From a virus, in IMG/VR virus record IMGVR_UViG_3300042731_009409, positions 29,817 to 93,816 of that record: 64,000 bases of DNA. The stretch is one strand, 5' to 3'. The notes below the pieces were generated by a model. It had not been told where the DNA came from and did no database searches. It saw nothing but the letters and a program-made list of their open reading frames with translations. Each line of letters opens with the position of its first letter. The stretch's first letter is position 1. Positions 6,932-64,000 of the stretch are shown here, one piece after another. The position numbers were made by a program, and so were the translations under genes.

Positions 6932-9214
6932 TTAATTAGCAGAATCAAAAATTCCTTGTTTTCCAATTTCTATAATAAATCTTTCAACTGTATCGGCCAA
7001 TCTTAATGAAATTGATGCATTAAAATCACCTTGGGCCATCGTTGCATCAGTATTATTTTCGCCATCGATTTTGATTATACATGCTTCGGAAAATGTATCT
7101 CCGCGAATTGCATTTTTCTTTCTCCATTCGGGCAAGAAAAATGATCTTAGCGATGATTTTGTTGGCCCCCACAAGTTAGAATCATTTATTTGGAAAATGA
7201 TCCAATCGTAATTTTCAGAAAGAACGTGCTCGTAATAAGACATCTGCTCGCGTTGATGTTTCCATTTCCAGGTAGAATCCAGATATAAAGTTCTATCACC
7301 CCAAATAATATAATTTCCCTTTACCTTTTTGATAACAGAAATCCCAACCGGGTTTAGACTTTCTTCGTCAAGCAAAGTGTTGCCGGTAGTCAAAGAAAGA
7401 ATTTCTGGCAACGTTGCGTCAATACCAGCTTGCGCTTTATGATAACCCTCATAATCTCCAGAAAACCTTGCTTCACGACCATGAACCATACCCGTATTCG
7501 TAACAAGTTTTCTTTTTCCTTCTCCGCTTCCTAGTGGATCGGCAACATAACAGTAAGATGGAAATGAACAAACGGCAAAATCATTTCTTCCATACGTGTC
7601 ATTTATTTGAGAGATCGCACCAATTTCGGTTGTTATGTTTGATGGAATTTCGTATCTGTATTGATGGTTTTTTGCTTCTGCATATGCAACTCCCGCCTGA
7701 GCGACAGTTGTAGAAGTTACACCAGGGGTGGCCATTTTTACTAAACCAGCATTGGTTCCTTTGAGTCTATTAAACGGACTTGAAGATGTATCCCACGCTT
7801 GTTGTGTATAATCACTATCTGCAATATCTGCATTGCCGTCAATCCCGCCAGCCAATTCCGTTGTTGCAACAACCATAAATTGATCGTCTGCTTCAGAAAT
7901 CGAAGTCATATCAGAACCATCAGCAACGGTTATAGTGTTGTATGCATTTGATACAATTCTGTATTTTTTCAGTTTTTCATTCGCTTTATCTGGATACAAA
8001 TAACCATTTGCATATTCGCCATTTTCCAGAGGCTTATAATACACAATAATTACGTCTGCAGCAACACATGCAGTTGACCCAGCCGTGATTGTAAAAGGAG
8101 GAACAAATCTGTGACCAGAATCAAACTCTGTTCCAAAAGTTATTGTCCCGAGAGAACCAAATTCAGACGAAACAACACCGCCCTCTGTTGCCGATGTCAT
8201 TGTAATCGTAAGCGTTTGTCGTACCATTTCGGCGTTAACAGTCCCCAAAGCAATTGTAGGGTCGCCAGTTGCGCCAGACAAATCCATATAATGTATGTTT
8301 GCTGTCAAAATAGTATCTGTTACGCTTGAAACAGTTCCATAATAATTTGCTGGACGAACGTTTGCTACGTGAGCACCAGTCCAAAGATCTTCAGCTTCGA
8401 TTTCATAATTCGAATCATCGTTGTTTATGATCGAAACCCAATATTTTGTCGAAGTTGGGTCAGTTGACAAATCAGAATATTTTTTGACAAACTCGCCATC
8501 AACATAAACTGATAACGAAAATTCTGTGTCCGGATTTTGTTCGCCGTCCCCAATTTCAAAAGAAACCGCTTTGTCGTCATTGTCTAAAAACAGAGTATAA
8601 CCGGTTTCAGAACCAGCGCCTAAATCAGTGTCCATTGTTTGATCTGCCGCAACCTGGATAACACCGGCAGAAGTATTTCCAATAATCGGATATTGAGTAT
8701 TTGCAACACCTTCAAGTTCTACATATCCGCCTTTCCATTGATCTGTTACCCATGTAGTAATACCAGTTGTAATTTCTGTTTCATCAATATCTGCTACGTC
8801 CGAAACATCGCCATCATACTTTTGTTTTTTTCCACCCCAACGGCCACCGTTATGAGCTTTGATTTTTCCCATAGCAACAGGAATTACACCATCTTTTCTC
8901 GCATATATAGTTTTTTCAGCTTGAACTTCGTTCCCATCAGTTACTCTAACCAAGTACAAACCACCAGCGCCATTGGCAATCCTGTAATAACTAAAGCAGT
9001 TGTCAGGCAATAGCGAATCGTCTATGTAAGATCCGCATTTTTTCAAAAAACTTGCTCTGCTTTGACACTGTATTAATTCACCGACCGGTCCTTTTTCAAG
9101 CAAACCGGCATAACCACACCAGCCATATGGTGCAAGCTCAATGCTTTTTTGGCCAGATTTTTCTATTATTACTGTGCCAGCGCCCCTAGTAGGTCCAAAA
9201 CGTCTTTGAGCCAT
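6932..9214 (-). CDS. Tail sheath protein
   Basis: GLLEKGPVGELI N-terminus; LNPVGISVIKKVKGNYIIWGDRTL and IIFQINDSNLW C-terminal sheath motifs. Confidence 0.95.
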   Translation of the reverse strand: MAQRRFGPTRGAGTVIIEKSGQKSIELAPYGWCGYAGLLEKGPVGELIQCQSRASFLKKCGSYIDDSLLPDNCFSYYRIANGAGGLYLVRVTDGNEVQAEKTIYARKDGVIPVAMGKIKAHNGGRWGGKKQKYDGDVSDVADIDETEITTGITTWVTDQWKGGYVELEGVANTQYPIIGNTSAGVIQVAADQTMDTDLGAGSETGYTLFLDNDDKAVSFEIGDGEQNPDTEFSLSVYVDGEFVKKYSDLSTDPTSTKYWVSIINNDDSNYEIEAEDLWTGAHVANVRPANYYGTVSSVTDTILTANIHYMDLSGATGDPTIALGTVNAEMVRQTLTITMTSATEGGVVSSEFGSLGTITFGTEFDSGHRFVPPFTITAGSTACVAADVIIVYYKPLENGEYANGYLYPDKANEKLKKYRIVSNAYNTITVADGSDMTSISEADDQFMVVATTELAGGIDGNADIADSDYTQQAWDTSSSPFNRLKGTNAGLVKMATPGVTSTTVAQAGVAYAEAKNHQYRYEIPSNITTEIGAISQINDTYGRNDFAVCSFPSYCYVADPLGSGEGKRKLVTNTGMVHGREARFSGDYEGYHKAQAGIDATLPEILSLTTGNTLLDEESLNPVGISVIKKVKGNYIIWGDRTLYLDSTWKWKHQREQMSYYEHVLSENYDWIIFQINDSNLWGPTKSSLRSFFLPEWRKKNAIRGDTFSEACIIKIDGENNTDATMAQGDFNASISLRLADTVERFIIEIGKQGIFDSAN

Positions 9215-51445: not shown

Positions 51446-51622
51446 CTAAGCGCAAGCGCATTTAAACCCATGACGCTTCAAAGCAGTTTCGGCCGCTTTG
51501 ATTGATTCAAATAGCATTTTGTCGCCAGTAATTTGGTTAATCACCCAGGTTTGTTTTTTGGTTTGGCCGAGCATATTGGAAACTTCCTTTTGCATTATTG
51601 TGTAGATCCCTTTTTCAAACAT
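51446..51622 (-). CDS. Small protein, 58 aa, NUMOD1-like segment (not in ORF track)
   Basis: MFEKGIYT...VINQITGDKMLFESIKAAETAL; GGAG-containing RBS. Confidence 0.45.
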   Translation of the reverse strand: MFEKGIYTIMQKEVSNMLGQTKKQTWVINQITGDKMLFESIKAAETALKRHGFKCACA

Positions 51623-51689
51623 TTTTCCTCTCCTTGTTTCTCACGGTATTTCTCCGTGTCTCATTTCTGGTACACGTAAGGCTATAAGG

Positions 51690-51926
51690 CTAAGCAACGC
51701 TCATTTTACTAAAAGTACAAACAAAGGCTTTCCAGGTCAGCTTGAAATACTCAAGCTTTAAATACCCGATTACTTCGCGAATATCTTGGGTTTCTTTGCT
51801 GTCGCTGGAAAGCATTAAACGAGTAAATTGACCGTTTAGAGCACAAGTGATCATGTTTTTGGCCATTTCGCTGTCATCCCATTGTTTACGCCATGCAATT
51901 GCTTCGTTTATATTTGTTATTTGCAT
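51690..51926 (-). CDS. Hypothetical protein
   Basis: AAGGAAAG RBS after class A promoter. Confidence 0.65.
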   Translation of the reverse strand: MQITNINEAIAWRKQWDDSEMAKNMITCALNGQFTRLMLSSDSKETQDIREVIGYLKLEYFKLTWKAFVCTFSKMSVA

Positions 51927-51963
51927 TTTACTTTCCTTTGTTTGTTTCTCTGCTCACATTATT

Positions 51964-51991
51964 ATTATGACATAGTATTTGGCTGGCGCAA
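51964..51991 (-). promoter_or_regulatory. Class A repeated promoter
   Basis: TTGCGC-N16-CATAAT. Confidence 0.75.
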
Positions 51992-52012
51992 GTATTTTAT
52001 CTAAATAGTCTA

Positions 52013-52411
52013 TTACCTTTTCATCCAATCTTCGTATTCTGCTTCTGTGAATTGGATGTTTTTTATCATGTATCTTGAATCTTGAATATTTGAACAGTTT
52101 GAGCATTTTGAGCAATCTGAGCAGTCTGAGCAGTCAGAACAATCTGAACAACCTGAGCATTCTGAACAACCATAACAATCTGAACAATTTGAGCAGTCTG
52201 AGCAGTCTGAGCAACCATAACAATCTGAACAATTTGAGCAGTCTGAGCAGTCTGAGCAACCATAACAATCTGAACAATTTGAGCAGTCTGAGCAGTCTGA
52301 GCAATTTGAGCAGTCTGAGCATCCAAAACAATCTGAACAACGTATACAGTCTTTGTTCGTTTTTTTCAAAAAACCTGTTCTTCCCAATTTTAATATTTCT
52401 TCTTTTTTCAT
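52013..52411 (-). CDS. Cys-X-X repeat protein, 29 units
   Basis: MKKEEILKLGRTGFL-(CXX)29-IQDSRYMIKNIQFTEAEYEDWMKR; start moved from 52441 to 52411. Confidence 0.85.
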   Translation of the reverse strand: MKKEEILKLGRTGFLKKTNKDCIRCSDCFGCSDCSNCSDCSDCSNCSDCYGCSDCSDCSNCSDCYGCSDCSDCSNCSDCYGCSECSGCSDCSDCSDCSDCSKCSNCSNIQDSRYMIKNIQFTEAEYEDWMKR

Positions 52412-52447
52412 TTTACTTTCCTTTGTTTGTTTGTTGCTCACAATATT

Positions 52448-52475
52448 ATTATGACACGGTGTTTAGTTGGTGCAA
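52448..52475 (-). promoter_or_regulatory. Class A repeated promoter
   Basis: TTGCAC-N16-CATAAT. Confidence 0.75.
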
Positions 52476-52478
52476 CTT

Positions 52479-52643
52479 TTATTTGAAAATTTCTGAATTT
52501 ATGGCCATATCCATAAAAGCGTTCCCGGCGTCAATAAGTGTTTTCGAACAGTGGTCACAAAATAGTTCGTTATCCTCGGACAACCAGCCATTTTCGCTCA
52601 AATCTACTTCTTTGCCACAGATTTCACATTTCAAAGTTTCCAT
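52479..52643 (-). CDS. Small Zn-finger protein (METLKCEICG...FCDHC)
   Basis: C-terminal part of track ORF 52479..52826; RBS AAGGAAAATAAA before this Met. Confidence 0.6.
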   Translation of the reverse strand: METLKCEICGKEVDLSENGWLSEDNELFCDHCSKTLIDAGNAFMDMAINSEIFK

Positions 52644-52687
52644 TTTATTTTCCTTTGTTTGTTTGTTTGTTTGTTGCTCACAATATA

Positions 52688-52729
52688 AATATAGCTGGTA
52701 AAATACTTCCCGCAACTGAACATTTGTTC
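52688..52729 (-). promoter_or_regulatory. Class B promoter with GAAC-N4-GTTC box (52718..52729)
   Basis: GAACAAATGTTC-AG-TTGCGG-N16-TATATT. Confidence 0.7.
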
Positions 52730-52747
52730 TAAAAAAGTACTTTAAAT

Positions 52748-52807
52748 GCATAATCCTTGCTCTTTGATTTGCAAGGATTATGCCCGGTAGGCGCGAAGCG
52801 CCTACCG
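52748..52807. repeat. Two adjacent perfect hairpins (13-bp and 10-bp stems)
   Basis: GCATAATCCTTGC-N10-GCAAGGATTATGC and CGGTAGGCGC-GAA-GCGCCTACCG. Confidence 0.85.
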
Positions 52808-52867
52808 TATATTCTGTGTTCTTCAAATATGTATTTCTCCGTGGCTCATTTCTGGTACACGGGTATT

Positions 52868-53056
52868 TTAGTTTGTTTTAGATTTTTCTGATTTCTGAAA
52901 TTCTTCCCATTCCTTTAATTCTTTCCGGGCAGATATAAGCATTTCTTCAATCTTTTCCGGAGTGGTATTTGATTCTAGATACAGATCAATAATCTTGGTT
53001 ATTCTTTTTCCGTATTCCTCTATATTCAACATTTTGCTTCCTTTCCCGTGTACCAT
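52868..53056 (-). CDS. Small hypothetical protein
   Basis: Coiled-coil like; flanked by 22-bp motifs. Confidence 0.5.
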   Translation of the reverse strand: MVHGKGSKMLNIEEYGKRITKIIDLYLESNTTPEKIEEMLISARKELKEWEEFQKSEKSKTN

Positions 53057-53319
53057 AAATGAGCCACGGAGTAGTTTGTGGGGTTGGCTTTATATTATCC
53101 GAATACTTATTTATTCGGATATTTCCCCGTGTCTCATTTTTGGTACACAGCAACTCCATTTATTATTGTGGCATACAAAAGTACTTGTGCAAACATAAAA
53201 GTACTTTTTCAAATATTTTCCCGTGTACCATTTTTGGGCCACGGAGATATTCTGGGATAAGTATCCTATTGTCCTATTTGCCTATTTTGGTTTACTTTTA
53301 AAAAGGTGAGCCGCCACAA

Positions 53320-53381
53320 GCTCATTTCACCAGAATAAACTATTCTCACTCGCTCATTTCACCAGAATAAACTATTCTCAC
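53320..53381 (+). repeat. 30-bp direct repeat x2 (GCTCATTTCACCAGAATAAACTATTCTCAC) separated by 2 bp
   Basis: Read directly. Confidence 0.9.
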
Positions 53382-53929
53382 CAACAAGAATCACCATATT
53401 CTCACTAACCTGTTTCACCTATCCTCACTAACTTATATCCTCTACTATCATATTCTTACCAGTTCATTTTATTATATTCTCTCTCTTCTTGTATATATAT
53501 TGGGAGGTAAAGAAGTGTTTTTCCTATATATATCCTTTATATTGTTCTTATCTCTCTTTATATCCTCTCTCTCTTATATAGGAGAACTTTATTTTTATAT
53601 TGTGGGGGATTTGGAATATGGTATGTTTTTGAAAGAATAGATGATTTGAAAGTACTTAATATATCTTCCTTCTCTATATATACTCTCGTGTCTCATTTCT
53701 GGTACACGATGGTTTATTCTTTATATTCTTTTATGGGGGAAATATTTATATTTTTTATTTTATTTTGTGTTTATTTTGTGTTTATTTTGGAAAAGAATGT
53801 AACTAGTTGAAATCATTGAAGAAAATTGTATTTAAGCAAAATATGTTAAAAATATGGCTCCGTGTACCAGAAATGAGACACGAGAGCGTATTTTCAACCG
53901 TCTACATTTATGTTTCATCAGCAAGTATT

Positions 53930-54154
53930 TTACCTACTCATCCAGTCTTCGTATTCTTCTTGCGTGAATTGGATGTTGTTTATCTTGTATTTTGAATTTT
54001 GAATATTTAAGCAATCAAAACACTTATAACAATCTGAGCAGTCGGAGTTTTCGCAGTCCAAACAATATAAGCAATACGTGCAATTCTTGTTTGGACCGTT
54101 CCATTGTCTTAAATATCCTGTTCTTCCTAGTTTTAGTAATTCGGTTTTTTCCAT
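53930..54154 (-). CDS. Cys-X-X repeat protein, 8 Cys
   Basis: MEKTELLKLGRTGYL...IQNSKYKINNIQFTQEEYEDWMSR. Confidence 0.85.
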   Translation of the reverse strand: MEKTELLKLGRTGYLRQWNGPNKNCTYCLYCLDCENSDCSDCYKCFDCLNIQNSKYKINNIQFTQEEYEDWMSR

Positions 54155-54194
54155 TATTGTTTCTTTCTTTTTTTGTTGTGTCGTTCACATTATA

Positions 54195-54236
54195 AATATA
54201 GTACTTCAAATACTTTCGACAACTGAACATTTGTTC
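54195..54236 (-). promoter_or_regulatory. Class B promoter with GAAC-N4-GTTC box (54225..54236)
   Basis: GAACAAATGTTC-AG-TTGTCG-N16-TATATT. Confidence 0.7.
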
Positions 54237-54242
54237 TATTTT

Positions 54243-54605
54243 TCAGACAAGCCTTAAAAAAGGGGGATCTTTCTGCGTTTTTTCTGCAGAAGCTTGAGGA
54301 ATGGAATTTTCAATCGTTCCTGCCAACGAATTGAGGTTGATACAATCATAATTGATGTCGATGTAAGTAAATGGAACATCATAGTTTCCACATGCACATG
54401 GTTCTGCACGCAAACCGCGTCGATTTTTTCCTGCAAAAGGCACGATTACTTCTAGTAGACTGTCACAATCCATGCATTTTGCCTTAAATGGTGCAAGATC
54501 ATATTCCTTGCACCATTTTTCTAGATCGACATTATAGATCACCATATGATGAAAACCCAGATCAATATGCTTTCTTTTCCATTTTTGAGTTCTGTTCTTT
54601 TTCAT
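54243..54605 (-). CDS. Hypothetical Zn-finger protein
   Basis: CMDC...CACG. Confidence 0.6.
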   Translation of the reverse strand: MKKNRTQKWKRKHIDLGFHHMVIYNVDLEKWCKEYDLAPFKAKCMDCDSLLEVIVPFAGKNRRGLRAEPCACGNYDVPFTYIDINYDCINLNSLAGTIENSIPQASAEKTQKDPPFLRLV

Positions 54606-54642
54606 TTTCTTTGCTCAAATATAATCATTTGGTATTATCTTT

Positions 54643-54855
54643 CTATTTGTATGGATATATCATTTCGCTTAAATTTTTGTCTTTCTTTCGTTGGACATAA
54701 AATTTACCACCATTTTCAGTTATTTCAGAAAAATACTTTTCCAACCCAATTGCATGCCGAATAACCGATGATACAGTTATTTCATTATCCTCGGCTATTT
54801 TCTCCAAAATTTTCCAAACCTTTTCTGGCAGAGTAGCTTCTATTCTCTTTTTCAT
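54643..54855 (-). CDS. Ribbon-helix-helix (CopG-like) DNA-binding protein, copy 1
   Basis: RIEATLPEKVWKILEKIAEDNEITVSSVIRHAI. Confidence 0.8.
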   Translation of the reverse strand: MKKRIEATLPEKVWKILEKIAEDNEITVSSVIRHAIGLEKYFSEITENGGKFYVQRKKDKNLSEMIYPYK

Positions 54856-54857
54856 TT

Positions 54858-55184
54858 TTACCTACTCATCCAGTCTTTATATTCTGTTTCTGTGAATTGG
54901 ATATTTTTTATCATGAATTTTGAATTTTTAATATTTGAACAACCAAAACAATTTGAGCATTTAGAACAATTTAAACAACCAGAACAACCAGAACAACCAG
55001 AACAACCAATACAATCTAAACAATCTTGGCATTTAGAACAATCTAAACAATCTTGGCATTTAGAACAATCTAAACAATCTTGGCATTCTGAGCAATCAAA
55101 ACAATCTATGCAACGGTGGCAGTCCTTATTTGTTCTTTTCAAAAATCCAGTTTTTCCTAATTTTAACAATTCGGTTTTTTCCAT
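54858..55184 (-). CDS. Cys-X-X repeat protein, 21 units
   Basis: MEKTELLKLGKTGFL-(CXX)21-IKNSKFMIKNIQFTETEYKDWMSR. Confidence 0.85.
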   Translation of the reverse strand: MEKTELLKLGKTGFLKRTNKDCHRCIDCFDCSECQDCLDCSKCQDCLDCSKCQDCLDCIGCSGCSGCSGCLNCSKCSNCFGCSNIKNSKFMIKNIQFTETEYKDWMSR

Positions 55185-55369
55185 TGCTTTTCCACTTTCG
55201 TTTCTATCTTTCCATAATATTCTGGAAACTCACTGATATGTCTCAATCTGGCTTGATAAATGGTTTCATCATCCTTTTTATAACCTTCCGGAAGAGATGG
55301 AATTAAATATACTTCTCCTTCGTCGATATTTTCATTTACAACAAATTCAAAGTTAAATGTCTTGTTCAT
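55163..55369 (-). CDS. Hypothetical protein
   Basis: Coupled ORF. Confidence 0.5.
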   Translation of the reverse strand: MNKTFNFEFVVNENIDEGEVYLIPSLPEGYKKDDETIYQARLRHISEFPEYYGKIETKVEKQWKKPNC

Positions 55370-55640
55370 GTATCCCGTATCTTTCTTTTATTTTGTTCTT
55401 TTGTCCATCAAGGGGCAAATTTATTTCTTTCGGCTTGCCCCACAGTAATTTCCCGCAATTCCATCTGTCAATCCCAATTGACAATGATACTGGTGTTTCT
55501 GGTGGAATAAACTCGGTTGGCATTAAACCATTAAACCACTTTATGCACGTGTTTGATTCAATCCATTTCAGAGTTTTTACTAATTTTTCGCGATTTCTAC
55601 AAAATATTCTAATTTTTTCCATTTTCATAATATTTATCAA
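55353..55640 (-). CDS. Hypothetical protein (WLEENT family, distant)
   Basis: LKWIESNTCIKW. Confidence 0.55.
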   Translation of the reverse strand: MINIMKMEKIRIFCRNREKLVKTLKWIESNTCIKWFNGLMPTEFIPPETPVSLSIGIDRWNCGKLLWGKPKEINLPLDGQKNKIKERYGIHEQDI

Positions 55641-56029
55641 CCCATTTTTTTATATATTTCTCGTATTCTTTGGACATATTCCTCAAACCCAGGCATTTTT
55701 ACGCCGTCTTCATCCTGCATTTTTAAAAAAATGCCCCAAGCTCTTCTACTAACATAATGTGCTTTCATTGCTTCGCGTTTATTTTTGAATGGGCCTAAAG
55801 TATGACTTCCACAAATATTGCAGATATATGAAAGGCTTATAATGTCCTTTGGTTTGTTTGAATGATCACCACAATCCTGACAGACATAAAAATGCAAGTC
55901 TTCCTCATTTTCTGGCCCTAAAATAAAATCGAATTCATTAAACAATTTGTAGTCTTCTTTATTTTTTGACATTTTTGGTTTTCTTAGTTTATTTTCCGAC
56001 TGCCCAACCTCTTTTTTCATACGTTCCAT
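55637..56029 (-). CDS. Zn-ribbon protein
   Basis: CQDCG...CNICGS. Confidence 0.65.
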   Translation of the reverse strand: MERMKKEVGQSENKLRKPKMSKNKEDYKLFNEFDFILGPENEEDLHFYVCQDCGDHSNKPKDIISLSYICNICGSHTLGPFKNKREAMKAHYVSRRAWGIFLKMQDEDGVKMPGFEEYVQRIREIYKKMG

Positions 56030-56183
56030 GTTTATAATGTACTTTTATGACAATTGGATATATTTGTTCACCTTCTTTTCTTTCGTCAAATACTTTAGAG
56101 TACTCTGCATCATCATAAATTTTTCTGCAAGTTAGTTTTTTATCTTTTTCATATTCTGGTGTGATTTCTATTCTCTTTTTCAT
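55989..56183 (-). CDS. Hypothetical protein sharing MKKRIE start with RHH gene
   Basis: Same junction sequence as at 54841-54880. Confidence 0.55.
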   Translation of the reverse strand: MKKRIEITPEYEKDKKLTCRKIYDDAEYSKVFDERKEGEQIYPIVIKVHYKHGTYEKRGWAVGK

Positions 56184-56185
56184 TT

Positions 56186-56656
56186 TTACCTACCCATCCA
56201 GTTTTCGTATTCTTCTTGCGTAAATTGGATATTATCTATCATATACTTTGAATTTTGAATATCAGAACAACCAGCGCAATCAGAACAGCGTGAACACTCT
56301 GAACAACTTAAACATTTTTTACAGCCCGAACACTCTAAACAACCTAAACACTCTGAACAGTTTGAACAGTCTAAACAGTCTAAACAGTCTAAACAACGTG
56401 AGCAGTCTAAACAGTATAAACAGTATAAACAATGTGAGCAACGCGAACAGTCCGAACAACGTGAACAGTCCGAACAACCAGAGCAAGACGAACAACCAGA
56501 ACAACCAGAGCAAGACGAACAACTATAACAATGCGAGCAATCAGAGCATTCTGAACAATCTAAACAATACAAGCATTTGGAACAATTCTTATTTGAATTG
56601 TTCCATTGTCTTAAATATCCTGTTCTTCCTAGTTTTAGTAATTCGGTTTTTTCCAT
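56186..56656 (-). CDS. Cys-X-X repeat protein, 36 units
   Basis: MEKTELLKLGRTGYL-(CXX)36-IQNSKYMIDNIQFTQEEYENWMGR; start moved from 56710 to 56656. Confidence 0.85.
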   Translation of the reverse strand: MEKTELLKLGRTGYLRQWNNSNKNCSKCLYCLDCSECSDCSHCYSCSSCSGCSGCSSCSGCSDCSRCSDCSRCSHCLYCLYCLDCSRCLDCLDCLDCSNCSECLGCLECSGCKKCLSCSECSRCSDCAGCSDIQNSKYMIDNIQFTQEEYENWMGR

Positions 56657-56922
56657 TATTGTTTCTTTCTTTTTTTGTACCGGTATCGGATATGAAAAGC
56701 CGATGAACAACCCATCACATCACAATTATGCGTTTCATCGATTGGGTCGCCTAATACTATAATTTCTGTGTCCGTTTCATAACATTCTCTTAGTATACCC
56801 TCCGGGAAATTCGACAAGGGGACATGGACAATAATTTTATCGTCCCTAAGAATATGTAAAGATGTATTCATTGCCATTTCCTTACTAAAACAAAATATCC
56901 AGACGTTTATTTTCGAATTCAA
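56656..56922 (-). CDS. Hypothetical protein
   Basis: HNCDVMGCSS motif. Confidence 0.55.
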   Translation of the reverse strand: MNSKINVWIFCFSKEMAMNTSLHILRDDKIIVHVPLSNFPEGILRECYETDTEIIVLGDPIDETHNCDVMGCSSAFHIRYRYKKRKKQ

Positions 56923-57103
56923 TTATTTTTTCAACATCTCCGGTCATCTCGATATAATCTGCAATTTCATTGTATTTTTTAAAATTGCAAGATCTCAAAT
57001 ATTTACAAAACTCAGTTATACAAGCGTTAAATTTGTTTTTATCAAATTTAAGATATCTTGTTTTCCTCACAAAATTATCTATAGTTTCAATATGTTTAAT
57101 CAT
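56885..57103 (-). CDS. Hypothetical protein
   Basis: AAGGA RBS. Confidence 0.5.
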   Translation of the reverse strand: MIKHIETIDNFVRKTRYLKFDKNKFNACITEFCKYLRSCNFKKYNEIADYIEMTGDVEKIIEFENKRLDILF

Positions 57104-57115
57104 TTATCATTTCCT

Positions 57116-57328
57116 TTATCTATATGGATATATCATTTCGCTTAAATTTTTGTCTTTCTTTCGTTGGACATAAAATTTACCACCATTTTCAGTTATTTCA
57201 GAAAAATACTTTTCCAACCCAATTGCATGCCGAATAACCGATGATACAGTTATTTCATTATCCTCGGCTATTTTCTCCAAAATTTTCCAAACCTTTTCTG
57301 GCAGAGTGAATTCTATTCTCTTTTCCAT
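57116..57328 (-). CDS. Ribbon-helix-helix protein, copy 2
   Basis: 67/70 aa identical to 54643..54855. Confidence 0.8.
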   Translation of the reverse strand: MEKRIEFTLPEKVWKILEKIAEDNEITVSSVIRHAIGLEKYFSEITENGGKFYVQRKKDKNLSEMIYPYR

Positions 57329-57329
57329 T

Positions 57330-57737
57330 TTACACTACCGTTCCGGTTGTAATCACCAGATCAAATGAGCCTTTCGGAAGACCTTTTGATACATCAATTT
57401 TATTTTTGTTCCACTTTGAAAACCATTCAGTTAATTTTTTAAATTTTGTTTTAGAGACTGTTTCATCTTCCTCCCACCATTCTTGATAATCCTTTATTTC
57501 ATCGCAAGATCTTGTTGCGGCTTGCACCAAATACAGATCTAAAGGCAAATCATCTGTATTAATAATATATTTTTGATTTACGTTTAAAAGACTCAATTCT
57601 TCCTTGGTTGGGTCTTTAATTTTAATGTATTCTTGGTTTACGCGTTTCAAAACCCTCAATTCCTCTTCGGTTGGTTTCTCAATTTTAAAATATGATGCCA
57701 CTTCGGGCATTTCGTTCCAAATCAGTAATACATTCAT
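57330..57737 (-). CDS. Hypothetical protein
   Basis: GGAG RBS, coupled. Confidence 0.6.
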   Translation of the reverse strand: MNVLLIWNEMPEVASYFKIEKPTEEELRVLKRVNQEYIKIKDPTKEELSLLNVNQKYIINTDDLPLDLYLVQAATRSCDEIKDYQEWWEEDETVSKTKFKKLTEWFSKWNKNKIDVSKGLPKGSFDLVITTGTVV

Positions 57738-58270
57738 TTCTTACACTCCTTTTTTTGTTTCAAATAATCATACGCTTCTGCAAAGCTCTCGGCTCTAAAC
57801 CTCTCCTGTTTGGCTAAACATTTGCTGCATATGGTTATATGTGGGTCTCCATCTTTGCGCGGCCAGGATGCCCCACAATGTCTGCAACAAGTATCTTGTC
57901 TTAAAACTACGAGATAACCATCTTTCTCACATTTGTGTAAAATGTCGCACAAAGAGTCGGAAATCTCTTCGACCGACTTTCCGGTTGCATCAAACCATTC
58001 GAATTTTTCCAACCAATCCAAAAATATCGCTTTGATCGTGTCCCAACTTGCCAATTTTGCACGCTTTTTGTCTTCTGCCAAACAAAGTGGACATTCATCT
58101 ATATTATCTGTCCACGATATATTTATTGATTTTGGATGATTCAGACATTTAGTATAATATTTTTTATTCATTATTTTTGGCCTTTTGACAAAAAATATAA
58201 TATCCAGCATGAAACACCAAAACTCGAAGAATTGTCGCATACCATTGCGCATTCTTCGGGGTGAACCCAA
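57734..58270 (-). CDS. Hypothetical Cys-rich protein; start probably MNKKYY near 58171
   Basis: CPLC, CRHCG, CSKC. Confidence 0.55.
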   Translation of the reverse strand: MGSPRRMRNGMRQFFEFWCFMLDIIFFVKRPKIMNKKYYTKCLNHPKSINISWTDNIDECPLCLAEDKKRAKLASWDTIKAIFLDWLEKFEWFDATGKSVEEISDSLCDILHKCEKDGYLVVLRQDTCCRHCGASWPRKDGDPHITICSKCLAKQERFRAESFAEAYDYLKQKKECKK

Positions 58271-58473
58271 TCACCATCACTATAATCGTGTGGACACGTG
58301 CCAGTATGATCGGCAACAAATTGACAAGCTCTTTTTAAGGCCTGTTCAAATTCGTTTTCTTCTGAATCTGAACATTCGCAACCAAAACATTTATCGAATT
58401 TTACCCTACAAATCGGGCAAATTTGGTTTTTTAGTTTGTCTTCCATGTTTTTTTCCTTTCCATTCCATTCCAT
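58171..58473 (-). CDS. Hypothetical Cys-rich protein
   Basis: CPICR, TCPHD. Confidence 0.55.
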   Translation of the reverse strand: MEWNGKEKNMEDKLKNQICPICRVKFDKCFGCECSDSEENEFEQALKRACQFVADHTGTCPHDYSDGDWVHPEECAMVCDNSSSFGVSCWILYFLSKGQK

Positions 58474-58981
58474 TCTAAGGTCCCTTAATATTCAGTTTAT
58501 TGTTTTTTTTTGATTTGAGCAAATCATTTTTTTTGCTTGCAAGCAAAAAAAATTATGGCACAATAATATTGCAGATGGGCAAACACAAAAGGAAAATAAA
58601 ATGCAAAAAGAAGAGCCAAAATCAAAAAAAAGAAAAGTCAAAATTGAAAAATATACTAAAAACGTCGGCTGGAGAACAAACTCTCTGGTAGGCAATTCGG
58701 TTTTGTTTGGTTTCGAAAAAGTAAAAAAAGGAATTGTTTACAAAACTGTAGAACGAAAACCATTAGAAGAAGAAGGAGAAAAAAATGTTTTTACAAAAGT
58801 TGGCCTATAAAACACAAACGGGCGAAATCGACATAAAAAAATTTGAATTTTTATGTGATATAGAAGGTTTGCCACACAAACCACAAAGATGTGTGGCCGT
58901 GGCCACCGAAAAGGATAAAAAAGGAAATATAATTAAGACTTATATTTCTACACTAAAAATTAATTTCGGAAGAAGTTAACA

Positions 58982-59242
58982 ATGGAAATAGATTTTAACA
59001 AACTTTCAGAACAACTGACGGCTGCGATCATAAAAGAATCTGAAAAATATACCGGCTTACATGAAAAAATAGTAAATGAAGTTGTAAATGAAGCAATCAT
59101 GCAACAACGCGGTATTTTTTCCGAACTGTGTGAAAAAATATTGACAACATACACAAGCGAGTGTAGAAAAGTTTTTAAACAAACTGTTAGCGATATTGTG
59201 TTGGAATATGCCACTAAAGATCAGGCCGGCCCATCGGCTTGA
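58982..59242 (+). CDS. Hypothetical helical protein
   Basis: GGAAG RBS; natural-looking composition. Confidence 0.55.
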   Translation: MEIDFNKLSEQLTAAIIKESEKYTGLHEKIVNEVVNEAIMQQRGIFSELCEKILTTYTSECRKVFKQTVSDIVLEYATKDQAGPSA

Positions 59243-59505
59243 AAAACCAATCTAACCGTATTCAAATCACCTATAAAATAGATACACCCTACATACGGCC
59301 CCACAGCCCCATCCTGAAGGATTTTGTAAATATCCGTACCAACCCCTACATAATACCGTTTTCGGCCACCAGACCGACAATATTCCAGTTCAACAATGGA
59401 ATTTTTCGGCAAGTTAAGGATTTGCCGTTTGGATAAGACTTTTTTTACAGGTATTTTGCAAATTTCCTCAAAATTCATTTTTTGCAACCTCCAACACATT
59501 GGCAA
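59221..59505 (-). CDS. Hypothetical protein
   Basis: GAGG RBS before MNFEEI. Confidence 0.5.
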   Translation of the reverse strand: MPMCWRLQKMNFEEICKIPVKKVLSKRQILNLPKNSIVELEYCRSGGRKRYYVGVGTDIYKILQDGAVGPYVGCIYFIGDLNTVRLVFQADGPA

Positions 59506-59762
59506 TTTTTACAACTGTCTTCTTTTTCGTCCAAAAACTTTTTGAGATCCGGAGATTGCTGAAAATCAAACAATTCACACGCATTTTTCAATTTGTTTAC
59601 AAATCTACACTTCTTTTTTGCATTAAATGGAATGTCTGACTTTTCATTCCGACAACTGCTGAATAAATAACTATAATATCGACAATCACAACACGTTTTT
59701 TCACCAATCATTTTAAAACCCTTTCTAAGGGAAAGTTTAAACTGTTTTGAAATCCTATGCAA
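59475..59762 (-). CDS. Hypothetical Cys-rich protein
   Basis: TCCDCRYY...C...C; start probably MIGEK. Confidence 0.5.
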   Translation of the reverse strand: MHRISKQFKLSLRKGFKMIGEKTCCDCRYYSYLFSSCRNEKSDIPFNAKKKCRFVNKLKNACELFDFQQSPDLKKFLDEKEDSCKNCQCVGGCKK

Positions 59763-59802
59763 ATATTATTGACATATTAAAAAAAACAAACAAACTTATA
59801 TA

Positions 59803-60159
59803 TTGACGAAAGGAAGCAAAATGAAAAACAAAATCTCAAAAATTTTACAAAAAAACTTCGAAAAAAACATTTCGATTCCAGCAATCGATTCTGGAAATGG
59901 TTCGAGCGGATCTTTTTTAATGGAACCCGACATTTATATGAATATCGATTTAGTCGATCCAAGAGATTGTGAAAGGGTCGAAATGGACAAAAAACTATTT
60001 GTCAAGGTGTTTGAAGATTTATTGATTTCCGGCGAAATGTCAAAGGATTGGGAACAATGGCAGATTTTAAAAGGGAGTGGAGATAACCCTTACACCATTA
60101 CATTTTGGGTTAAAGAAATTTTCAAAAACGTTGTTGTGCATTATGTACAAAAAATTTAG
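59803..60159 (+). CDS. Hypothetical protein; start probably MKNKIS
   Basis: AAGGAAG RBS; C-terminus homologous to a segment of the DnaC-like gene. Confidence 0.6.
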   Translation: MTKGSKMKNKISKILQKNFEKNISIPAIDSGNGSSGSFLMEPDIYMNIDLVDPRDCERVEMDKKLFVKVFEDLLISGEMSKDWEQWQILKGSGDNPYTITFWVKEIFKNVVVHYVQKI

Positions 60160-60383
60160 GAGTCTGTATCTTCGTCGCAATCCGGGACGCCATCGCCCCT
60201 TCCGTGTTCGTTTGTGTCTCCATAATCAGTAGCATCCCAATCGTCAGTATCGGCTATTCCGTCGCCGTCCATATCTCCGTTGTCCTCACACTGTTCGGCT
60301 TTGGCATTTCCAGCGCAGATTGTAATTATAAACGCAACTGCAAACAAAATTATCGAAATTAGTACAACTTTAAAATTTTTCAT
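60156..60383 (-). CDS. Small secreted protein with Ca-binding DxDGDG-type repeats
   Basis: Signal peptide ending AKA; DMDGDGIADTDD and GDGVPDCDED. Confidence 0.7.
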   Translation of the reverse strand: MKNFKVVLISIILFAVAFIITICAGNAKAEQCEDNGDMDGDGIADTDDWDATDYGDTNEHGRGDGVPDCDEDTDS

Positions 60384-60458
60384 TTTTTTTCCTTTGTTTG
60401 TGTTTTTCTGTTCATAATATTATTGTGACATTATTTTTTTTGTTTTCAAACAAAAAAC

Positions 60459-61955
60459 TTGTCTTTTCTAAAAAAACTTGTCTTTTCTAAAAAAATGCAA
60501 TATATTTGCATAGTTATGAAAAAAATAAAAATAGAAATAGAAAATTGTTATACAAAAATTTTTGGTATAAACAGAGAAACAGTGCGAAAATTATCGGATA
60601 TAACATCGTACATTTTAAAAGGTTCGTGGTTTTCAAAATCGTATCAAAAGGGGAATTGGAGCGGAAAGGAAAAATTGCTCGAAATGGTAAAAACCGGCGG
60701 TTACAGGTTTCCAACCGGCCTTTTATACGATGTTACAAAATATTTAGAAAAACAAAAAATCCAATATAAAATAATAGACAAGAGGCGAAAACCAAAACAC
60801 AAAGATTTTGTTCTTTATTCATGGAATCAAAAAATAAAGCTCAGAAATTATCAAAATAAAGCTTTCGAAAAAATATCAAAAAAAGATTTGTATTTCGGCA
60901 ATGGAATTTTAAAAATGCCAATCCGATCTGGAAAAACAAAAACAATTGCCTGGATAATAGGGTTTTTGTCTGTAAGGACATTGTTTATCGTACCATCAAA
61001 ATCCTTATTGTACCAAACCCAAAAAAGTCTAGAAGAATCTCTATTGTGCAAGGTTGGTTTGATCGGTGATGGAAAGTGGGAAGAACAAAATATAACAGTT
61101 GCCACAGCCCAGACTTTATCTAAATCCAGAATGTCCAATGATCCGAAGTGGAAAAAACTCATAAAGCGATATTTTTGTATAATTTTTGATGAAGCACACC
61201 ATTTGACAGCACCAACGTGGCATAAAACAATGATGGAGTTTGACGCTCCATATAAACTCGGTTTAAGTGCCACTGCATTCCCGGAAATGGATGGAAGCCA
61301 GTGGGATAAAGGATCGATATGGCTCAAGGCGTGTTGTGGCAGAATCCGTGTAAGTGTCGATACAAGTGATTTGATTGAACAAGGGTATCTGACAAAACCA
61401 ATCGTAAAACTTTATAAGATAGACAAGCCTGATTTAAGCGGCAAAGGTTGGTCTCAAAGCCTGAGAAACAAGGCAATTTACGAAAATAAAATACGAAACA
61501 AAAAAATAACGGAAGTAGCAAAAAAATATACAAAAAAAGGAAAACTCGTCCTAGTTGTAACAAATCGACTCAACCAAGTTAAAATATTGTCTGAAATGTT
61601 TGATAAAGCTGGAATAAATCACGAAACAATGACAAGCGCAGACTCGACTGAGTCGAGAGAAAACAAAGTTTCGGATTTCGTAAATCACAAAACAGACGCA
61701 TTGATTGGTACGATTTTATCTGAAGGCGTTGATATACCTGAAATTGATGTTGTGATAAATGCAGAAGGCGGAACCGATATAAAATCAACTGTCCAAAAGA
61801 TGAGAAATTTAACAGTTTGCGATGGAAAAAAGAATGCAATTTTTGTTGACTTTATTGATTTGACCAACAAATATTTCGCAAACCATTCAAAATCACGCCT
61901 ATCCGTATATAAATCTGAAAGAGCGTTTAGGGTAAAACTCGTGGCCCAAAAATGA
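60459..61955 (+). CDS. Superfamily-2 DNA helicase (UvsW/XPB-like); start probably MKKIKIEI
   Basis: MPIRSGKT, IIFDEAHH, GLSATA, LSEGVDIP. Confidence 0.93.
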   Translation: MSFLKKLVFSKKMQYICIVMKKIKIEIENCYTKIFGINRETVRKLSDITSYILKGSWFSKSYQKGNWSGKEKLLEMVKTGGYRFPTGLLYDVTKYLEKQKIQYKIIDKRRKPKHKDFVLYSWNQKIKLRNYQNKAFEKISKKDLYFGNGILKMPIRSGKTKTIAWIIGFLSVRTLFIVPSKSLLYQTQKSLEESLLCKVGLIGDGKWEEQNITVATAQTLSKSRMSNDPKWKKLIKRYFCIIFDEAHHLTAPTWHKTMMEFDAPYKLGLSATAFPEMDGSQWDKGSIWLKACCGRIRVSVDTSDLIEQGYLTKPIVKLYKIDKPDLSGKGWSQSLRNKAIYENKIRNKKITEVAKKYTKKGKLVLVVTNRLNQVKILSEMFDKAGINHETMTSADSTESRENKVSDFVNHKTDALIGTILSEGVDIPEIDVVINAEGGTDIKSTVQKMRNLTVCDGKKNAIFVDFIDLTNKYFANHSKSRLSVYKSERAFRVKLVAQK

Positions 61956-62047
61956 TACACGAGACTTCTCCGTGTACCAAAAATGAGCCACACGTGTACC
62001 AAAAATGAGCCACGGGAGAAAATGCCGTGTACCAGAAATGAGCCACG
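61940..62047. repeat. Four tandem copies of the 22-bp motif
   Basis: Copies at 61940 (inverted variant), 61971, 61993, 62026. Confidence 0.9.
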
Positions 62048-62137
62048 GGGAAATTTAAGCTTGTATAAGAATCTAAAAACATGTTAAAACCCTTATATTG
62101 GCTATGCATTTTTTTAATTTACAAAACAAAATAAAAA

Positions 62138-62437
62138 ATGATTAAAAAAGTAGGGATAAAGACAAAAACAGTTAGTTTGCCGGAAGCTTATAGCGAATTA
62201 TCGCCGAATGTTTTTGCTGCTTTTGTGGTACTTTCTACAATTCAAAAAAAGACGTACAAAAGAAACAAAATTCCTAAACTTTTGGGCAAAACAAGATCAA
62301 GTTGTTCCAGATTTCTGGAACAGTTGGTTGCATTAAAATACATTAAAATAAAAAATAAAGGAATTGGAAAACCATCAGTAATTTATTTTCTAAAACGCTT
62401 AGAGGTAGAAAAAGACTCAAGGTTTGTGATCTCATGA
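62138..62437 (+). CDS. Small winged-helix DNA-binding protein
   Basis: IPKLLGKTRSSCSRFLEQLVALKYIKI...SVIYF. Confidence 0.7.
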   Translation: MIKKVGIKTKTVSLPEAYSELSPNVFAAFVVLSTIQKKTYKRNKIPKLLGKTRSSCSRFLEQLVALKYIKIKNKGIGKPSVIYFLKRLEVEKDSRFVIS

Positions 62438-62581
62438 AGTATTTTAAAAGACCGAAGGTCAAGAATGATTATTCTTTTTTAAAGAATAATCATTCTTTTC
62501 TATATTCTGGGAGCAGTATTTCTTTTTTAAAAAACAGAAAAACAAAAAAATTTAAAAAAATGCACAGGAAGTGGATTTCTC

Positions 62582-62603
62582 CGTGTACCAAAAATGAGCC
62601 ACG
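62582..62603 (+). repeat. Single 22-bp motif copy followed by AT-rich low-complexity tract
   Basis: CGTGTACCAAAAATGAGCCACG. Confidence 0.9.
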
Positions 62604-62886
62604 GGGTTTTTCTTTCTTTCTTTTTTTCTTTCTTTCTTTAATAGCTTGTTATATAGCTTATTATATAACTTATTATATAACAGGTGACAAACTTTATATA
62701 TATATGACTCAGCTAAAGCTTCGTCATATATATATAAAGTTTCACTTCGTGATATTTTATATTATACACTTATTTATCTTATCTGCTCTATACAAACTAA
62801 TATACTTAGACATATGTTCTATGTTATATGTCAATTACGATTTGAATCTAATCTAAATCGTATGACTAGAAAAGGATTTCGGAAAG

Positions 62887-63576
62887 ATGCTCGTTGAAGA
62901 GATAAAAAAGATGAAAAATGGTGAAAGGATGAACCCAAAGAAAATTTTGAAGAGGGTTAAAGCAGAAAAGAAGAAAATTGATTGGGGAAAGTTCCCGGAA
63001 CCTGGAATATTTTTGACCAGAAATGAAAAAATGAATAAAGATCTTTCCCGGAAAGGAAAGGTAAAAAAAATTGCTCTTGATAAGCTTGGGAAAAAATTTG
63101 GCGAATGCTATGTGCTTTACAGGAATGCTGCTGAAATAGAATTGGGAAGAAAAAAGGTTTTTATCATAACCGTCAAAAATGAAAAATATTGTGTTGGTGG
63201 TGGGAGCTTTTGTTTTGCCAATATGTTTAACCCATTTTTGTTGTTTCGATATTGGCACGAAATGAAAGATCATTTTTTTGATTTCACGTTTCCACCACTT
63301 TCTTTTATTGCAAGTTCTTATGCTCTGGAAACTGCGTACAACAATGTTTCTCAAATAGAGTTTGGCAATTCTTATTCCAGCATTTGTTGTGGTCTGTCTA
63401 AAATAAAAACAATTTTGAAAAAAAACAATTTTGACATCCCGGATGATGACAGGTTTGTTTTGCAGATAAAACAAACGGCAGAATTTATTAAAAGCGGTAG
63501 AAAAATGTTTGTGACAGAAAATATTAAAAGAATGGTTGATTGTTTGGTGGAATATGAGAACAGAAAAAGAAGTTGA
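62887..63576 (+). CDS. Hypothetical protein, possible replication-initiator partner
   Basis: 229 aa overlapping the DnaC-like gene; GGA RBS. Confidence 0.6.
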   Translation: MLVEEIKKMKNGERMNPKKILKRVKAEKKKIDWGKFPEPGIFLTRNEKMNKDLSRKGKVKKIALDKLGKKFGECYVLYRNAAEIELGRKKVFIITVKNEKYCVGGGSFCFANMFNPFLLFRYWHEMKDHFFDFTFPPLSFIASSYALETAYNNVSQIEFGNSYSSICCGLSKIKTILKKNNFDIPDDDRFVLQIKQTAEFIKSGRKMFVTENIKRMVDCLVEYENRKRS

Positions 63577-64000
63577 AAAATTTTTTGAATCTGTAAACAG
63601 CAGAAATCTAAATAGCGAAAAAAAATATTTTTATAAACAAGCGTATGAGGGCTGTTTGCCTTTTGGTTTTTTTAATGTTTTGCACAAAAAAATAACACAC
63701 AATAAAGAAATTTTTGAAAACATTGTTGTGCGCTATGTGCAAAAAATAGATGTTGTTCTAAAAAATGGTTACGGTTTAATTTTTACTGGCGATAACGGAA
63801 CCGGGAAAACACATTTTGTTTCTTACATTTTGTCATCAGCGATTAAAAAAAGAAGGACCGTTTATTACACAACTCTTCCAGAGCTTGAAAATAATTTAAA
63901 GCGAGGGTTTTCAGAATGGGACATAAATAAAAGATTGGATTATTTTTTAAGTTCTGATTTTCTAGCAATAGACGAAGTCGGCAAAGAGCTTGTTGGAAAA
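63554..64000 (+). CDS. DnaC/IstB-like AAA+ helicase loader (runs off window, not in ORF track)
   Basis: Manual translation GLIFTGDNGTGKTH...YYTTLPEL...SDFLAIDEVGKE. Confidence 0.9.
   Translation, partial: MRTEKEVEKFFESVNSRNLNSEKKYFYKQAYEGCLPFGFFNVLHKKITHNKEIFENIVVRYVQKIDVVLKNGYGLIFTGDNGTGKTHFVSYILSSAIKKRRTVYYTTLPELENNLKRGFSEWDINKRLDYFLSSDFLAIDEVGKELVGK

Follow-up and report, generated by a model that had tools for sequence, protein, structure and literature searches.

A 22-bp motif in an uncultured phage is probably the iteron of a split replication initiator, with a candidate origin and a second cluster of sites

We analysed a 64,000-nucleotide stretch of phage DNA (the window: bases 29817-93816 of the 108,355-bp IMG/VR virus record IMGVR_UViG_3300042731_009409), which carries twelve copies of a 22-bp motif in two clusters, A and B; positions below are those of the window unless stated otherwise. 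On the basis of gene order, domain fusion, co-variation and fold, we regard the motif as the probable iteron of a replication initiator encoded by the phage itself, and cluster B as the probable origin. We also think it likely that the whole is best explained by a split initiator, an origin at cluster B and, at cluster A, a second binding locus with a role like that of oriR in phage SPP1. The only sequencing run found to contain this stretch is a wetland metagenome, flagged as its probable source.

The pattern CGTG-N14-CACG occurs ten times in the window against 0.19 expected from shuffles (highest shuffle count, 2), and a mismatch search with the consensus CGTGTACCAAAAATGAGCCACG added two copies with one end mismatch, at 53128 (TGTG...) and 61971 (...CACA). 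When the whole 108,355-bp genome was scanned with a weight matrix, the twelve sites scored 29-49 bits and no thirteenth copy exceeded 12 bits, in agreement with the exact-pattern search. An earlier note on this DNA had reported twelve copies in two distant clusters and proposed such a full-genome scan. Its count, now resolved into 10 exact and 2 single-end-mismatch copies, held up, as did its placement of seven copies in both orientations at 51655-53882 (recovered by pattern and weight-matrix scans alike); four more lie at 61940-62047 and one at 62582. The perfect 26-bp inverted pair that it described (53683-53708 / 53861-53886) is real.

The consensus, CGTGTACCAnAAATGAGmCACG, consists of 9-bp half-sites, CGTGTACCA and CGTGGCTCA, with a 4-bp gap between them, and CGTG and the inner CA are invariant. 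The CGTG-N14-CACG motif of the earlier note is therefore present but only quasi-palindromic: its asymmetry is kept in 10 of the 12 copies, the central A-tract being flipped in those at 53222 and 61940. A GGrGAAAT-like flank stands on one side of the motif, and many copies are followed by a purine-rich flank of the GGAGAAAT type. With this flank and its promoter-like length, the 22-mer could be a phage-specific signal, either a promoter read by a phage RNA polymerase or sigma factor or an RNA hairpin. We regard this as highly improbable: five copies are oriented against local transcription, a gene converging on site 7 has its 3' end towards it, the stem in a transcript would be just 4-5 bp, an Rfam scan of the region returned nothing but sub-threshold miRNA-like matches on an AT palindrome, and the equivalent repeats of relatives lie inside coding sequence.

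Cluster B lies within a replication module whose order on the + strand is SF2/UvsW-like helicase, four sites, a gene for a protein of 99 amino acids (aa), a hairpin, site 12, a CTTT/AT-rich tract, a 229-aa gene and a DnaC-like loader, with a DnaB-like helicase, primase and DnaE-like polymerase downstream of the loader. Loader and helicase were assigned by matches to phrog_50 (DnaC-like, 2e-28) and phrog_19 (DnaB-like, 1e-58). The features are as follows.

60495-61955, + strand: UvsW/SF2-type DNA helicase gene, its last codons overlapped by site 8
61940-61961, - strand: site 8, variant with flipped A-tract (pattern and weight-matrix searches)
61971-61992, + strand: site 9, CACA end variant, abuts site 10 (mismatch and weight-matrix searches)
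61993-62014, + strand: site 10, exact consensus match (pattern search)
62026-62047, + strand: site 11, last of the phased array (pattern search)
62138-62437, + strand: 99-aa winged-helix gene, read as the putative origin-binding domain of the split initiator (fold, fusion, selection)
62461-62497, + strand: perfect hairpin with 17-bp stem, then a T-run, terminator-like, after the winged-helix gene
62582-62603, + strand: site 12, exact consensus, abuts the CTTT tract; a syntenic site exists in the nearest relative, L007
62604-62860, no strand: candidate unwinding region, 24-27% GC, with CTTT tract (62604-62637) and palindromes (62647-62682, 62684-62745)
62800-62870: block of ~75 nt conserved with L007, inside the candidate unwinding region
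62887-63576, + strand: gene for the 229-aa all-helical protein, matching the C-terminal domain of relatives' fused initiators; its stop overlaps the DnaC-like start
63554-64000, + strand: DnaC-like helicase loader gene, running past the window end

It is textbook knowledge that iteron origins can lie within or next to initiator genes, and cluster B has the parts of such an origin. Sites 8 to 11 start at 61940, 61971, 61993 and 62026, spacings of 31, 22 and 33 bp that correspond to roughly 3, 2 and 3 helical turns, so that, with the further copy at 62582, at least three helically phased copies of one site stand beside a candidate initiator gene. The AT-rich DNA next to them, with its CTTT tract and palindromes, keeps its layout in L007; the candidate initiator gene is followed by those for a helicase loader and a replicative helicase; and the site sequence co-varies with the DNA-binding domain of the candidate initiator across relatives. 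Two details of the earlier note needed adjustment. There are indeed four tandem copies upstream of the winged-helix gene, but the array ends 91 bp before its ATG and does not immediately adjoin it; and the site at 62582 does precede an AT-rich tract, but the 229-aa gene stands between that tract and the DnaC-like gene.

A 140-aa open reading frame (ORF) over the AT-rich tract (62434-62856) was rejected as spurious, spanning as it does site 12 and low-complexity origin DNA, and a tRNA scan of the region found none. The ~75-nt block ahead of the 229-aa gene (…AAACAAACTAA…CATATG…AATCTAATCTAAAT) has been kept in L007, although the rest of the AT-rich spacer has diverged; it may belong to the origin or serve the initiator-loader-helicase operon as promoter or leader.

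The strongest link between the winged-helix protein and replication comes from relatives. These were found only through the DnaC-like protein, whose relatives lie on contigs of ~100-107 kb, and alignment of those DnaC-like relatives led to 24 related IMG/VR loci. In L012, L014, L015, L018, L025, L029, G007 and G008, a single ORF comprises a winged helix, a low-complexity linker and a domain like the 229-aa protein, and ends at the DnaC-like gene. The 229-aa protein aligns with these fused C-terminal domains, sharing the motifs YWH..DF, PPLSF and DDRYLLTIQ. Within the fused genes, each phage's own repeats lie in linker-coding DNA, between the N- and C-terminal domains in L018, L025 and G008, a position that is intergenic in the window. 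On these alignments, we read the window as carrying a split initiator, with the predicted origin between its two genes. A DNA-binding N-terminal domain, an origin-encoded linker and a C-terminal effector domain also make up lambda O, SPP1 gp38 and the RepA_N plasmid initiators (PMC5703833; PMC6316719). The fusion supports the earlier note's proposal that the sites are tied to a replication origin: the winged helix is fused to the domain that precedes a DnaC-like loader, and the repeats fall in the linker.

An exhaustive profile search for the C-terminal-domain family gave 221 cluster representatives. Among the best 150 of the 221, 61 are at least 430 aa long, 53 of them with a winged-helix N-terminus, and 60 are shorter than 320 aa, none of which has one; fused and split forms are therefore both common. 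The 229-aa protein is modelled as all-helical with a predicted local distance difference test (pLDDT) score of 80.5. A PDB search with this model gave no match at E <= 0.001 (best 0.6), and the only match of the fold in the AlphaFold DB is a 597-aa protein in which a MarR-type helix-turn-helix (HTH) is followed by the same domain. In locus L021 (G002:C1:71380-72890), the winged-helix ORF runs through the iteron array and stops, and the C-terminal-domain ORF begins in another frame, overlapping it, as if a frameshift within the repeats had split the gene.

The repeats themselves differ from phage to phage. L007, whose DnaC is 76% identical, has the same layout as the window: sites with the window's half-sites and a GATC centre ahead of its 99-aa homolog, and one site after that gene, directly before a CTTT tract and AT palindromes. 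When the two spacers were aligned, the site, the CTTT tract, the palindromes and the ~75-nt block were conserved and the rest had diverged. The more distant L009 has four copies of TAGGCTCA-N4-TGAGCCTA between its winged-helix homolog and the next gene, which makes GGCTCA-N4-TGAGCC the older core. At the same place, L018 has four copies of its own repeat with a 22-bp period, L021 three with a 21-bp period and L025 five with a 15-bp period, and L020, G007 and G008 have others. Censuses by strict palindrome missed most of these repeats and an 11-mer census was too noisy; a 14-mer census with a mismatch-tolerant scan worked.

In a cross-scan over genomes, each repeat was enriched in its own genome only. 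The window and L007 have a common recognition helix (RSSCSR) and common half-sites, and G002 and G008 are similar to each other in recognition helix, wing and repeat. On this comparison, the repeat sequence tracks the recognition helix of the winged helix. The winged-helix gene is, moreover, the only one that turns up beside such repeats in each of the relatives inspected in detail. Adjacency, co-variation and domain fusion together support the earlier note's suggestion that the sites belong to one phage protein, with the 99-aa winged-helix protein as the best candidate. That note had also said that a lack of conservation in related phages would count against its proposal; the motif's sequence is kept in the nearest relative only, but the layout, second cluster included, recurs with co-varying sequence.

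An exact motif scan of IMG/VR found no other contig, and a looser-pattern metagenome scan, which did not return the known relative L007, gave 21 contigs with one match each, taken as chance without inspection. A search with the helicase protein found no viral relative, a word search with the 99-aa protein found only itself, and no cultured relative of the DnaE-like polymerase exceeds 35% identity.

The 99-aa gene is judged to be real, since its comparison with L007 indicates purifying selection (nonsynonymous pN 0.22, synonymous pS 0.81). Its product is modelled as a winged helix (pLDDT 79.8), and the best PDB fold matches, by Foldseek, are the N-terminal domains of RepA_N initiators (4pql, 5kbj, 4pt7 and 4pta; E 2e-4 to 1.5e-2); its structure neighbours in the Atlas are RepA_N, DnaD_N and HTH_36 proteins. 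As a homodimer, the model scored 0.85 against 0.40 for the best control, a mark reached by 20 of 30 proteins solved as same-chain pairs and by 1 of 23 solved as single chains. Three runs agreed in 100% of contacts, with a partner pLDDT of at least 88, and the modelled interface (residues 11-38 and 87-99) leaves the recognition helix free. Solved winged-helix dimers exist, and the pass may stem from likeness to them; the predicted homodimer fits a two-fold site.

Cluster A comprises the remaining seven sites, as follows.

51655-51676, - strand: site 1, between two small genes, 13 nt past the stop codon of 51690-51926 and 33 nt short of the start codon (ATG) of 51446-51622
52840-52861, - strand: site 2, 6 nt after the stop of a 54-aa gene and ahead of a GC-rich hairpin (52785-52807)
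53047-53068, + strand: site 3, 14 nt ahead of the leftward 54-aa gene's ATG (53032)
53128-53149, - strand: site 4, TGTG end variant, its start ~12 nt past the -10 box in a leftward promoter-like element
53162-53189, - strand: promoter-like TTGCAC-N16-CACAAT between sites 5 and 4 (consensus match only)
53222-53243, + strand: site 5, central A-tract flipped
53244-53686, no strand: non-coding stretch (~440 bp) containing further direct repeats, tracts of CT-rich and TATATA sequence and an abrupt local flip in GC skew
53687-53708, - strand: site 6, left arm of the perfect 26-bp inverted pair
53709-53860, no strand: 152-bp AT-rich spacer (~27% GC) between the divergent sites 6 and 7, a candidate unwinding element
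53861-53882, + strand: site 7, right arm of the inverted pair, facing the 3' end of a converging gene

Local transcription is leftward, with a small hairpin between sites 4 and 3, and AT-rich DNA (53400-53900, 26-29% GC) lies between and beside sites 5-7. Aligning the flanks of cluster A with those of cluster B revealed no similarity beyond the sites, and none of 50,697 phage records matched cluster A in a blastn search. Cluster A also contains direct repeats at 53315-53442 (2 x 32 bp, CACAAGCTCATTTCACCAGAATAAACTATTCT, and 4 x 23 bp, TATTCTCAC…), and the GC skew at 53300-53900 flips locally from -0.6 to +0.4. Downstream of site 2, the GC-rich hairpin at 52785-52807 (10 bp) and a second hairpin (52757-52790) stand ahead of a promoter with a GAAC-AAAT-GTTC palindrome.

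We compared nine whole genomes, this phage (G000) included, by a census of repeated 14-mers made without reference to the motif finding.

G000 (this phage): 5 copies at the origin; second cluster of 7
G001: 4 copies inside the initiator gene; second cluster of 4 in tandem, 41 kb away; the 8 copies are the genome's top 14-mer
G002: 3-4 tandem copies at the origin; second cluster of ~12 over 2.6 kb, in both orientations, often forming inverted pairs immediately past the -10-like boxes of small genes
G008: 3 tandem copies at the origin; second cluster of 10-11 over 1.3 kb
G003 and G007: one cluster only; no second cluster
G004, G005 and G006: no clear repeat defined; no second cluster

A second distant cluster is thus present in 4 of the 9 genomes, each with its own repeat sequence and set among small accessory genes. 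Its place is always the long accessory region, where it lies 5-28 kb upstream of the p499 homolog, p499 being a 499-aa structural-block gene. Because a co-varying second cluster recurs in these four genomes, we read cluster A as a second initiator-binding locus. In G002, two second-cluster sites (G002:C1:7780-7870 and 8650-8720) are each followed by the same ~27-nt leader, GAAAACrTTTTTACCGCTTTGCCCAAA, before small genes, which suggests repeated promoter or leader cassettes that carry an initiator site.

The neighbourhoods of the second clusters of G000, G001 and G002 have no protein in common, which leaves the initiator as the only constant partner of the repeats. This bears on the idea that something else binds them, either a ribbon-helix-helix (RHH) protein or a host factor, with the proximity of the winged-helix gene incidental. 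Near-identical 70-aa RHH genes (54643-54855 and 57116-57328), interleaved with genes for Cys-repeat proteins, lie 0.8-3.5 kb from cluster A and are real DNA-binding candidates (RHH_1 at 21.5 bits against a cut-off of 20.5). No link between them and the 22-bp motif was found, and comparison gave them no support; as described above, only the winged-helix and initiator region adjoins the repeats in each of the relatives inspected in detail. The complete divergence of the repeats among relatives of 34%-63% GC argues against one conserved host factor. We consider either binder quite improbable.

A further possibility is that the 99-aa protein acts purely in transcription, as a MarR-like repressor whose twelve sites are operators of its own gene and of small accessory genes, the origin being set otherwise. 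It matches profiles of MarR- and CRP-type regulators, four sites lie ahead of its own gene, sites 3-5 bracket the promoter-like element of cluster A (sites 4 and 5 flank it), and the second-cluster sites of G002 stand at or just after the -10-like boxes of several small genes. We nevertheless judge this unlikely. The domain is fused in ~40% of family representatives to the C-terminal domain that precedes the DnaC-like loader, the repeats of the fused genes are tandem 15-22-bp arrays in the coding linker and not at promoters, site 12 directly adjoins a palindromic, AT-rich tract that is conserved in L007, and the top fold matches are plasmid initiators. Promoter-positioned sites are also compatible with an initiator, because initiators commonly repress as well.

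Several observations do weigh against our assignment of initiator and origin. The RepA_N fold matches are moderate (template modelling scores, TM, 0.52-0.58), with generic MarR, ArsR and CodY proteins and repressors close behind. By sequence, the winged helix has a weakly MarR- or CRP-like profile (E 0.0045 to a MarR chain) and no profile match to solved RepA_N chains. Both the 99-aa and the 229-aa protein lack a Pfam or PHROG family: a Pfam search with the 99-aa protein gave no family at E <= 0.01, PF06970 included, and one with four fused relatives at E <= 0.05 gave only weak HTH_24, MarR_2 and Rrf2 matches, again without PF06970, the MarR_2 and HTH_24 matches being sub-threshold and in one relative. 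No Shine-Dalgarno sequence is visible ahead of the ATG of the 99-aa gene (62138) or of its L007 homolog, although AGGA-type sites are plain to see at neighbouring genes; the gene may be translated weakly or with the help of its leader. The GC-skew profile that the earlier note had called for was run on all nine genomes, where skew tracks the direction of transcription and carries no information on the origin. Our account offers no explanation of how a winged-helix protein recruits a physically separate effector domain. As to the second locus, several cluster A sites, like those of G002, are promoter-proximal, which fits plain operators as well as an origin, and 5 of the 9 genomes lack a second cluster, which must therefore be a dispensable, accessory feature.

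The closest parallel for the arrangement as a whole is phage SPP1. SPP1 gp38 is reported to bind oriL, inside gene 38, and oriR, ~13 kb away in a non-coding moron segment; the proposed trigger for the switch to concatemer synthesis is a fork that runs into gp38 at oriR (PMC6316719; PMC3485210). As in SPP1, the repeats of one origin-binding protein would lie at two separate loci of one genome (here in G000, G001, G002 and G008), one at the initiator gene or within it, ahead of the genes for a loader and a DnaB-family helicase, and the other kilobases away in a non-coding or 'moron' segment, both consisting of repeats and AT-rich DNA. There are also differences. No sequence relationship to gp38 was found, in that a tblastn search with one relative's fused initiator against 50,697 phage records, among which SPP1's presence is unconfirmed, gave no match. 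The initiator here is in two genes, and the sites are quasi-palindromes, whereas those of SPP1 are direct AB boxes. The proposed second locus consists of 7 scattered sites in both orientations, some of them at a promoter.

The RepA_N plasmid initiators offer a parallel for the protein. The gene for pSK41 Rep contains four Rep boxes, to which the N-terminal domain of the protein binds, and origin DNA codes for the linker (PMC5703833). A similar tripartite plan is seen in the fused proteins of the relatives, with an N-terminal winged helix predicted to bind the repeats, a dispensable linker encoded by the origin and a C-terminal effector; the site centre is A-rich, as in Rep boxes, and the best fold matches of the 99-aa protein are RepA_N N-terminal domains. 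Unlike RepA_N proteins, the family has no PF06970 match even at relaxed E-values and no profile match to the solved chains; its C-terminal domain has no PDB match and by that test shows no relation to the RepA_N C-terminal domain; the partner is a DnaC-like loader gene and is not shown to be DnaG; and the setting is a phage, not a plasmid.

Two other systems share parts of this layout. In phage lambda, ori lies inside gene O, which is followed by P, and there is no second distant iteron cluster. As with O, iterons and an AT-rich region lie here between an N-terminal part read as DNA-binding and a C-terminal part read as loader-interacting, with the loader gene next; the fold family is another one, there is no homology, and in the window the gene is physically split at the origin. 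Plasmids with Rep_3-type initiators have iteron control loci, such as incA of P1, incC of F and the gamma/alpha/beta origins of R6K, which govern the copy number of stably kept plasmids. Cluster A resembles these loci in having extra initiator sites of mixed orientation away from the origin, which might keep initiator away from the origin by titration or contact the origin through looping or handcuffing. Nothing here points to a plasmid lifestyle or to handcuffing; plasmid-style titration, handcuffing or the looping suggested in the earlier note is possible at cluster A. By analogy with SPP1, cluster A is most likely an auxiliary origin and/or a fork-arrest site like oriR, which also flanks a promoter.

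We propose that the 99-aa winged-helix protein would be the DNA-binding part of the initiator and would bind each quasi-palindromic site as a homodimer. The 229-aa protein, its gene overlapping the start of the DnaC-like loader and the DnaB-like helicase gene shortly downstream, would be the effector part. The four phased sites ahead of the winged-helix gene would contribute both cooperative binding and autoregulation, and DNA opening and helicase loading would take place at the CTTT tract and AT-rich palindromes beside site 12. Cluster A, among the accessory genes, would be a second locus for the same protein, serving as an auxiliary origin, as a tightly bound barrier at which forks from the main origin stall, or as both. 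As the initiator builds up it may also repress the 54-aa gene, because sites 3-5 bracket the promoter.

What appears to be new in these comparisons is an unannotated initiator family with an unmatched C-terminal fold, its frequent splitting of the gene at its own origin, and a co-varying second locus in several very divergent members. More speculatively, and with considerable doubt, a family of uncultured ~105-kb phages with a DnaE-like polymerase may carry an unannotated lambda-O-like initiator whose C-terminal fold has no solved relative and whose gene is often split by its own origin. The second distant array would then be a working part of replication (a second origin, or a fork barrier that flips circle-to-circle to concatemer mode) and a shut-off switch for early accessory genes. 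To our knowledge, the role of SPP1 oriR has rested on a single phage; if the proposal is true, the oriL/oriR arrangement would be a general strategy, not one phage's peculiarity.

Annotations of uncultured phages hardly ever include the origin or the initiator, and here an origin, origin-binding domain, effector domain and loader can provisionally be assigned across a family, for an initiator domain with ~220 cluster representatives that has no Pfam family, PHROG family or solved structure. That a second predicted initiator-binding locus is kept in several very divergent members (34-63% GC) is comparative evidence drawn purely from genome sequences. Its presence or absence within the family offers a natural comparison of auxiliary origins, fork barriers and gene switches, and the split form raises the question of how a separate origin-binding protein recruits a loader-facing domain.

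Finally, the genome order of this phage bears on the distance between its clusters. Relative to all eight relatives, whose genomes are co-directional throughout, its replication block (from the helicase to the DnaE-like polymerase and beyond) is inverted with respect to the structural and accessory blocks, with end-points at ~88.3 kb and 14.7 kb in the genome (58300-58600 in the window). Because of this inversion, the clusters are just ~8 kb apart. Together with the inverted copies, including the perfect 26-bp pair, the inversion might suggest that a site-specific recombinase acts on the sites or that they are the spread ends of some small mobile repeat. We find this very hard to credit: the inversion end-points are away from the sites, no recombinase was seen beside either cluster, and two clusters also occur in relatives without the inversion. 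In SPP1, a variant with inverted replication genes, SPP1invmir, is viable (PMC6316719).

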